Notes under the pieces: generated by a model | Told to the model about the DNA's origin: nothing | The model's input: the letters and a program-made list of their open reading frames with translations, nothing else | Database searches by the model: none | Assembly: GCF_001677475.2 (NCBI RefSeq) | Contig: NZ_CP015229.1 | DNA from: Escherichia coli | GTDB lineage: Bacteria > Pseudomonadota > Gammaproteobacteria > Enterobacterales > Enterobacteriaceae | Length of the DNA: 64,000 nucleotides | Reading direction: 5' to 3' (one strand) | Shown here: positions 28,372 through 28,500 of the stretch, in pieces | Position numbering within the stretch: the stretch's first letter is position 1 | How the letters are laid out: each line of letters begins with the position of its first letter | Made by a program: the position numbers and the translations under genes

Positions 28372-28427
28372 CCAGGCTTTTGTAAAGACGAACAATAAAT
28401 TTTTACCTTTTGCAGAAACTTTAGTTC

Positions 28428-28456
28428 GGAACTTCGCGCTATAAAACGAATCTGAA
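28428..28456 (+). promoter_or_regulatory. sigma-E-type promoter of degP
   Basis: GGAACTT (28428-28434), 16-nt spacer, TCTGA (28451-28455), about 45 nt upstream of the degP ATG; GTAAA/TTTAC elements upstream may be CpxR half-sites. Confidence 0.55.
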
Positions 28457-28500
28457 GAACACAGCAATTTTGCGTTATCTGTTAATCGAGACTGAAATAC

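Follow-up and report, generated by a model that had tools for sequence, protein, structure and literature searches.

The degP promoter region of Escherichia coli: a sigma-E promoter with upstream CpxR elements in the dgt-degP gap

The promoter of degP (htrA) in Escherichia coli K-12, degPp, is sigma-E dependent and activated by CpxR. A related system has been described for htrA of Salmonella Typhimurium (P1/P2/P3 together with a fourU RNA thermometer), where a start with a 47-nt leader was found in three studies, the stress-induced transcript has a 40-nt leader, and temperature-dependent translation was demonstrated by SHAPE and reporter assays (PMC5602114). On the side of CpxR the nearest relatives are the promoters of cpxP, ppiA and spy, which carry the tandem motif GTAAA-N5-GTAAA and are transcribed with sigma-70. 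Here we describe positions 28372-28500 of a 64-kb stretch of E. coli DNA (the window, at its full length), for which a first-pass annotation had proposed a degP promoter with a sigma-E signature and CpxR-like half-sites.

It is evident that the region corresponds to K-12 degPp, with which it shares the locus, the promoter elements and their spacing, the transcription start, the leader length and both curated CpxR boxes. In a promoter alignment with K-12 MG1655, 179 of 181 bases are equal. Both differences are located in the spacer of the sigma-E promoter, at 28436-37, where GC in the window stands against AG in K-12 (K-12 spacer CAGG..., as seen in the alignment with K-12 and strain SK1144). 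Leaders of 40 and 47 nt are found as in Salmonella, but the leader hairpin of E. coli folds very weakly and contains an A-C mismatch in the lower stem where the RF02700 model has an A-U pair. The far-upstream start inside dgt belongs to a Salmonella-type promoter; no degP start inside dgt is listed in two K-12 start tables (Kim 2012, Cho 2014). Like cpxP, ppiA and spy, degP has a perfect first GTAAA and a 10-bp repeat register, less than 100 bp upstream of the start. Unlike these promoters, its second pentamer is ACAAT, which shares two of five bases with GTAAA, and a third, invariant and inverted pentamer, TTTAC, follows 10 bp further on. In addition, the promoter with which CpxR is partnered at degP uses sigma-E, whereas those of cpxP, ppiA and spy use sigma-70.

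Very probably, then, 28372-28500 is the dgt-degP gap with the main degP promoter, comprising a sigma-E start at A28461, upstream CpxR binding and a thermometer leader. The degP promoter region is already known, textbook material, and the first-pass annotation was correct in spotting it.

The dgt-degP gap and its sigma-E promoter

The gap between the dgt stop codon and the degP ATG is 129 bp long, has an A+T content of 64%, and lies between an open reading frame of 505 aa that ends at 28371 and one of 474 aa that starts at 28501. The former is the CDS of dgt, encoding a dGTPase (26854..28371, + strand; 896 bits with NCBIfam model NF003429), and carries the annotation dgt in K-12 as well as in further E. 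coli. The latter is the CDS of degP (28501..29925, + strand), identified by the NCBIfam equivalog NF008189, serine endoprotease DegP, with 935 bits against a cut-off of 720. The gene order in the window is dgt-degP-cdaR, with CdaR confirmed by an NCBIfam equivalog model. The segment 28200-28700 is present with at least 95% identity in 5,423 of 5,426 complete E. coli genomes (at least 99% in 5,422), with the annotations dgt and degP. Of 5,424 E. coli genomes, 4,023, O157:H7 among them, share the 65-bp core promoter of the window without a difference. It is thus the majority allele, while the K-12 form belongs to a minority allele class. Spacer sequence has been tied to the strength of sigma-E promoters in published work.

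The -35 element GGAACTT (28428..28434, + strand; positions -33 to -27) can be read directly from the sequence and matches in seven of seven bases the consensus derived from 28 RACE-mapped promoters, GGAACTT and TCAAA with an A/G start (Rhodius 2006, PMC1312014). The -10 element TCTGA (28451..28455, + strand; positions -10 to -6), likewise a direct reading, is placed 16 bp from the -35 element and has T, C and the last A, three of five bases, in common with the RACE-derived TCAAA. The spacer of 16 bases, CGCGCTATAAAACGAA (28435..28450, + strand), contains a TATAAA (28440-45) and has a mean identity of 0.78 across genera. From the sigma-E element to the degP start codon at 28501 there are 46 bases. 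Against the classical TCTGA the -10 element matches in all five bases; this full match is partly circular, because the classical consensus GAACTT-N16-TCTGA was built in part from degP itself.

Consensus-level patterns were scanned against shuffled sequence. In the 64-kb window the 12-base sigma-E pattern has a single match, whether it is searched exactly or with one mismatch tolerated; for the latter the shuffle expectation is 0.14. The looser pattern GGAACTT-N15-17-TCNNA gives two matches where 0.24 are expected. A consensus scan of the + strand in 28000-29000 gave no sigma-70-type promoter. The other of the two looser matches, GGAACTT-N17-TCTTA at 8653-8681 (- strand), falls at the 3' end of sfsA. 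It is oriented like dksA, whose start codon follows about 190 nt downstream, and with 0.24 matches expected it could have arisen by chance.

Positions mapped in K-12 were converted to the window by equating the degP start 180,884 with 28501, with zero indels in between. The main transcription start is A28461 (+ strand), which corresponds to K-12 position 180,844 in two supplements and gives a leader of 40 nt. RACE enriched for 5'-triphosphates yielded 180,844, with its 40-nt leader, as the single K-12 degP start (Kim 2012, PMC3415461 supplement), and the upstream 51-mer reported there for this start ends in ...GGAACTTCAGGCTATAAAACGAATCTGAAGAACA (PMC3415461). Another supplement lists the starts 180,844 and 180,837 (Cho 2014, PMC3923258). 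In Klebsiella pneumoniae, degP starts were mapped behind an identical GGAACTT-N16-TCTGA (PMC3415461 supplement). A28461 is a purine, and five bases lie between TCTGA and the +1 position. A start far from the predicted +1 had been named as the observation that could overturn the sigma-E reading; since the mapped start lies 6 nt past TCTGA, not far from that prediction, the reading survives. The label 'E' in the table of Cho 2014 was considered as ChIP evidence for sigma-E and was rejected, as the sigma-24 information in that paper came from a database.

The dependence of degP on sigma-E is taken from the literature. DegP is included in the core sigma-E regulon (PMC1312014), its gene is induced 56-fold by sigma-E overproduction, the strongest response of all genes (PMC2731931), and its promoter is active in an assayed library of 60 sigma-E promoters (PMC3326320). 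The assignment of a sigma-E promoter at 28428-28455, as it had been proposed, is supported by the exact presence of GGAACTT-N16-TCTGA at these positions together with the mapped start and the published induction.

CpxR boxes and the conserved upstream block

Two CpxR sites of degP appear among the known sites in Table S1 of PMC9600279, with De Wulf 2002 as their source. The proximal box, 'degP1' (GTAAAGACGAACAAT, 28382..28396, + strand), has its centre at -72 from the main start, and the GTAAA at 28382-28386 is its first pentamer. The distal box, 'degP2' (GTAAATTACCGTCAG, 28232..28246, + strand), is located inside the dgt CDS, with its centre at -222. With a CpxR matrix built from the 39 other listed sites, from which the degP sites were left out, the proximal box scores 6.4 bits and ranks in the top 0.13% of the window, where about 170 positions score equally well; for the distal box the score is 12.2 bits (top 0.007%). 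The first-pass annotation had proposed GTAAA and TTTAC elements at about 28382-28410 as candidate CpxR sites and had asked for a matrix scan. What holds of this proposal is the GTAAA, which opens a curated site that is also the best CpxR-matrix match in 36 of 54 orthologous upstream regions, described below. The TTTAC at 28402-06 lies in no curated box, scores about 0 bits and finds no support in the scan, and the better-scoring curated box at 28232-46 falls outside the range that had been given. The two pentamers alone are weak evidence for CpxR: GTAAA or TTTAC occurs 177 times in the window, which corresponds to about 0.36 expected per 129 bp. The combination GTAAA-N15-TTTAC occurs once in the window and in none of 100 shuffles.

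Two further features were noted in the vicinity. The segment CTAAAGTTTCTGCAAA (28409-28424, - strand) adjoins the -35 element and is a predicted CpxR-like site of 16 bp (N6) with a score of 8.1 in a genome scan (PMC9600279); its conservation across genera is moderate only. Inside dgt, a TATTAT at 28273-78 (+ strand) would put a start near 28286 with a 215-nt leader, like the far-upstream promoter of Salmonella htrA, and relative to such a start the distal CpxR box would be at about -47.

Published expression data connect degP with the Cpx pathway. On overexpression of nlpE, degP is up 32-fold, versus 6.4-fold in a cpxR null background, and in a cpxR knockout it is down by log2 2.2-2.5. The ChIP-exo study that provides the knockout expression does not include degP in its list of direct CpxR targets. 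Overexpression of cpxR alone did not induce degP, for which its authors blame limiting sigma-E (PMC2731931). Cpx control of degP/htrA has been reported in several genera. With the curated box GTAAAGACGAACAAT and the expression dependence from the literature, the proposed control of degP by CpxR is supported in substance. The gene of the Cpx-activating lipoprotein NlpE had also been brought forward in this context. It is indeed encoded in the window, outside the promoter, 33.6 kb downstream (nlpE, 62138..62848, + strand; NCBIfam NF007814, 398 bits against a cut-off of 243). Its proximity was rejected as evidence for Cpx control: NlpE activates CpxA in the envelope and signals through it in trans, so that co-location and genomic distance are without regulatory meaning.

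To compare the region across genera, 100,044 species genomes were scanned for the DNA pattern GGAACTT-N16-TCTGA-N30-60-ATGAAAAA, which gave at least 120 stretches. Among the matches listed, about 60 precede DegP orthologues of 73-99.7% identity, in genera that include Escherichia, Salmonella, Citrobacter, Klebsiella, Raoultella and Enterobacter as well as Kluyvera, Kosakonia, Pluralibacter, Shimwellia, Atlantibacter, Serratia and others. From these a set of 54 distinct regions upstream of degP was used, drawn from over 20 enterobacterial genera, with 28 representatives for the calculation of identities. Because the exact sigma-E pattern and ATGAAAAA were required for selection, the -35 and -10 elements are conserved in this set by construction, and nothing can be learned from it. 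In about a dozen genomes of iron-oxidising betaproteobacteria, among the matches listed, GGAACTT-N16-TCTGA precedes a conserved ORF of 36 aa (MKKAYEGVA[KR]FVRW...; twelve loci in Gallionellaceae / Sideroxydans and relatives), which suggests a small membrane protein under a promoter of the RpoE/AlgU type.

Upstream of the core promoter, three short blocks stand out in the 28 representatives. The mean identity to the window is 1.00 for GTAAA (28382-86), 1.00 for TTTAC (28402-06) and 0.96 for ACAAT (28392-96), of which CAAT is invariant. GTAAA, CAAT and TTTAC show next to no variation in the full set of 54 regions either. For comparison, the mean identity is 0.44 for the bases just past the dgt stop codon (28372-79), 0.64 for 28407-27 and 0.51 for the third codon positions of dgt. 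The distance from GTAAAG to the first G of the -35 element is 46 bp in 46 of the 54 regions and 45 bp in the other eight. In Serratia the GTAAA/CAAT/TTTAC block is kept despite divergence of the remainder of the spacer. The distal box has a mean identity of 0.53 in the 28 representatives and is among the top three matrix matches in only 14 of the 54 regions.

The blocks form the arrangement GTAAA-N5-(A)CAAT-N5-TTTAC, that is, three pentamers in a 10-bp register of which the outer two are mutually inverted. The TTTAC (28402..28406; GTAAA on the minus strand) has its centre at -57 and is embedded in the A/T tract AAATTTTTAC; across the orthologues its surroundings read AAATTTTTAC(T/C)TTTT. A canonical tandem CpxR box on the minus strand, GTAAAAATTTATTGT (GTAAA-N5-ATTGT), was considered for this element and rejected, as its score stays near 0 bits in every orthologue; the median of the minus-strand 15-mer at TTTAC is 0.5 bits. 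TTTAC overlaps the UP region of sigma-E promoters, which extends from -65 to -35 with A/T-rich peaks near -57/-58 and -48/-49 (PMC3326320, PMC1312014). Possible roles of TTTAC, which is clearly functional, are a contact of the RNA polymerase alpha-subunit, a DNA bend or an inverted CpxR half-site. We infer a contribution of TTTAC and the A-tract, whether through an additional CpxR contact or through an UP-element or bend.

A mechanism can be proposed from these elements. RNA polymerase containing sigma-E (RpoE, sigma-24) recognises GGAACTT and TCTGA, 16 bp apart, and starts transcription at A28461. Phosphorylated CpxR would bind upstream, at least at GTAAAGACGAACAAT (28382-96), with a second box present at 28232-46. 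During activation of the Cpx pathway, as on overproduction of NlpE, CpxR raises degP transcription. The centre of the proximal box at -72, a class-I-like position on the helical face of the polymerase, together with the fixed spacing suggests that phosphorylated CpxR helps the sigma-E holoenzyme. CpxR would thus act on the sigma-E promoter from upstream, in a manner that depends on the face of the helix.

Alternative readings of the region

An alternative for the block at 28380-28411 is that it acts mainly as an UP-element or intrinsically bent A/T tract to which the alpha-subunits of RNA polymerase bind, or as the site of another factor, with CpxR acting elsewhere, for example at 28232-46, or indirectly. 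The block spans -81 to -50 and so overlaps the UP region of sigma-E promoters; the proximal box scores weakly with the CpxR matrix and TTTAC with its surroundings about 0, degP is without a CpxR ChIP-exo call, and it is an outlier in an in vivo model of promoter strength (PMC3326320). Against this, the curation of the 15-mer GTAAAGACGAACAAT as a CpxR site goes back to a genome-wide binding study, and expression of degP depends strongly on cpxR. Moreover, what is invariant is precisely GTAAA, its G and T included, while an A/T-tract model does not need these to be fixed. A role confined to the distal box agrees poorly with its lack of conservation across genera, as Cpx control of degP/htrA is nevertheless reported in several of them. 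We therefore regard this alternative as unlikely, although it is the strongest of those considered, and prefer direct binding of CpxR at the proximal box.

The inverted arrangement of the outer pentamers also allows a non-canonical engagement of CpxR, in the form of two head-to-head dimers or of a dimer with a third contact, or else a further factor so far overlooked, or a bend in the DNA. Such an arrangement appears somewhat less probable still than an UP-element and is mentioned here as a tentative option. If true, it would depart from the direct-repeat model that lies behind all CpxR site predictions.

A different question concerns the promoter on which CpxR acts. The second mapped 5' end, G28454 (+ strand; K-12 180,837 in Cho 2014; 47-nt leader), falls inside the sigma-E -10 element. 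The TATAAA at 28440-45 is a possible -10 element for this start, and G28454 may mark an overlapping promoter without sigma-E dependence. CpxR might then act mainly through this promoter, with TATAAA as -10 element and sigma-70 or sigma-S, and not through the sigma-E promoter. The 5' end recurs at the same G of TCTGA in Klebsiella (207,608; PMC3415461 supplement), its leader length is that of the Salmonella start found in three studies, and TATAAA is largely conserved in Enterobacteriaceae. Danese 1995 is said to have observed that the induction of degP by Cpx depends on sigma-E only in part. On the other hand, a -35 element cannot be recognised for the putative promoter, and scanning the region for the consensus gave no sigma-70-type promoter. 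Measured from 28454 the centre of the CpxR box would be at -65, which is off-phase, versus the class-I-like helical position of -72 from 28461. In Serratia, where the CpxR block is kept, TATAAA is not conserved, and the failure of cpxR overexpression to induce degP was ascribed by its authors to limiting sigma-E. It is doubtful, to about the same degree as the non-canonical arrangement, that CpxR acts mainly in this way, and we rank it below assistance of the sigma-E holoenzyme by CpxR from upstream.

Finally, a chance match of GGAACTT-N16-TCTGA without promoter function can be dismissed, being refuted by the mapped start 6 nt downstream and by the published sigma-E dependence with its 56-fold induction: short two-block patterns do arise randomly, and the looser pattern matches again at 8653-8681, but the full GGAACTT-N16-TCTGA has no second match in the window (expectation 0.14 with one mismatch), is placed in the only gap between genes upstream of degP and is common to about 60 degP orthologues, among the matches listed.

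The leader thermometer and the stacking of controls

Downstream of the start, the segment 28461..28506 (+ strand) matches the HtrA fourU RNA thermometer of Rfam (RF02700) with 77 bits against a gathering threshold of 52 (E = 9e-17; model positions 1-46 of 46). The thermometer was absent from the first-pass annotation. The match begins exactly at the mapped +1, A28461. The UUUU at 28468-71 pairs with the Shine-Dalgarno sequence GAGA at 28489-92; in the RF02700 alignment UUUUG (28468-72) pairs with UCGAGA, with C28473 bulged, and the minimum-free-energy fold gives the same hairpin. The predicted fold of the leader is weak (-3 kcal/mol, z = +0.69). When pairs were counted on the Rfam structure in 28 orthologues, 71.7% of cells were paired versus 69.5% in shuffles, and two pairs had changed on both sides. 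Covariation across the 28 orthologous leaders is not significant, and RNAalifold predicted no consensus structure for them. Because of the weak fold and the non-significant covariation, membership of the thermometer family rests on the model score and the literature. By its Rfam score and by analogy with Salmonella, the degP leader is the known HtrA fourU RNA thermometer, and at low temperature the weak hairpin in the 40-nt leader would mask the ribosome-binding site.

As degP is the classic reporter of the two major envelope-stress pathways, recognition of its promoter from raw sequence serves as a positive control for the reader of that sequence and adds no new biology. Within 28372-28506 three layers of control are stacked, namely sigma-E, CpxR and an RNA thermometer, the last by analogy with Salmonella. 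The comparison across genera indicates that outside the close relatives of E. coli the distal curated box lacks conservation. CAAT and TTTAC are as invariant as the curated GTAAA, and they could refine the model of the contacts that CpxR or the alpha-subunit of RNA polymerase makes at degP.
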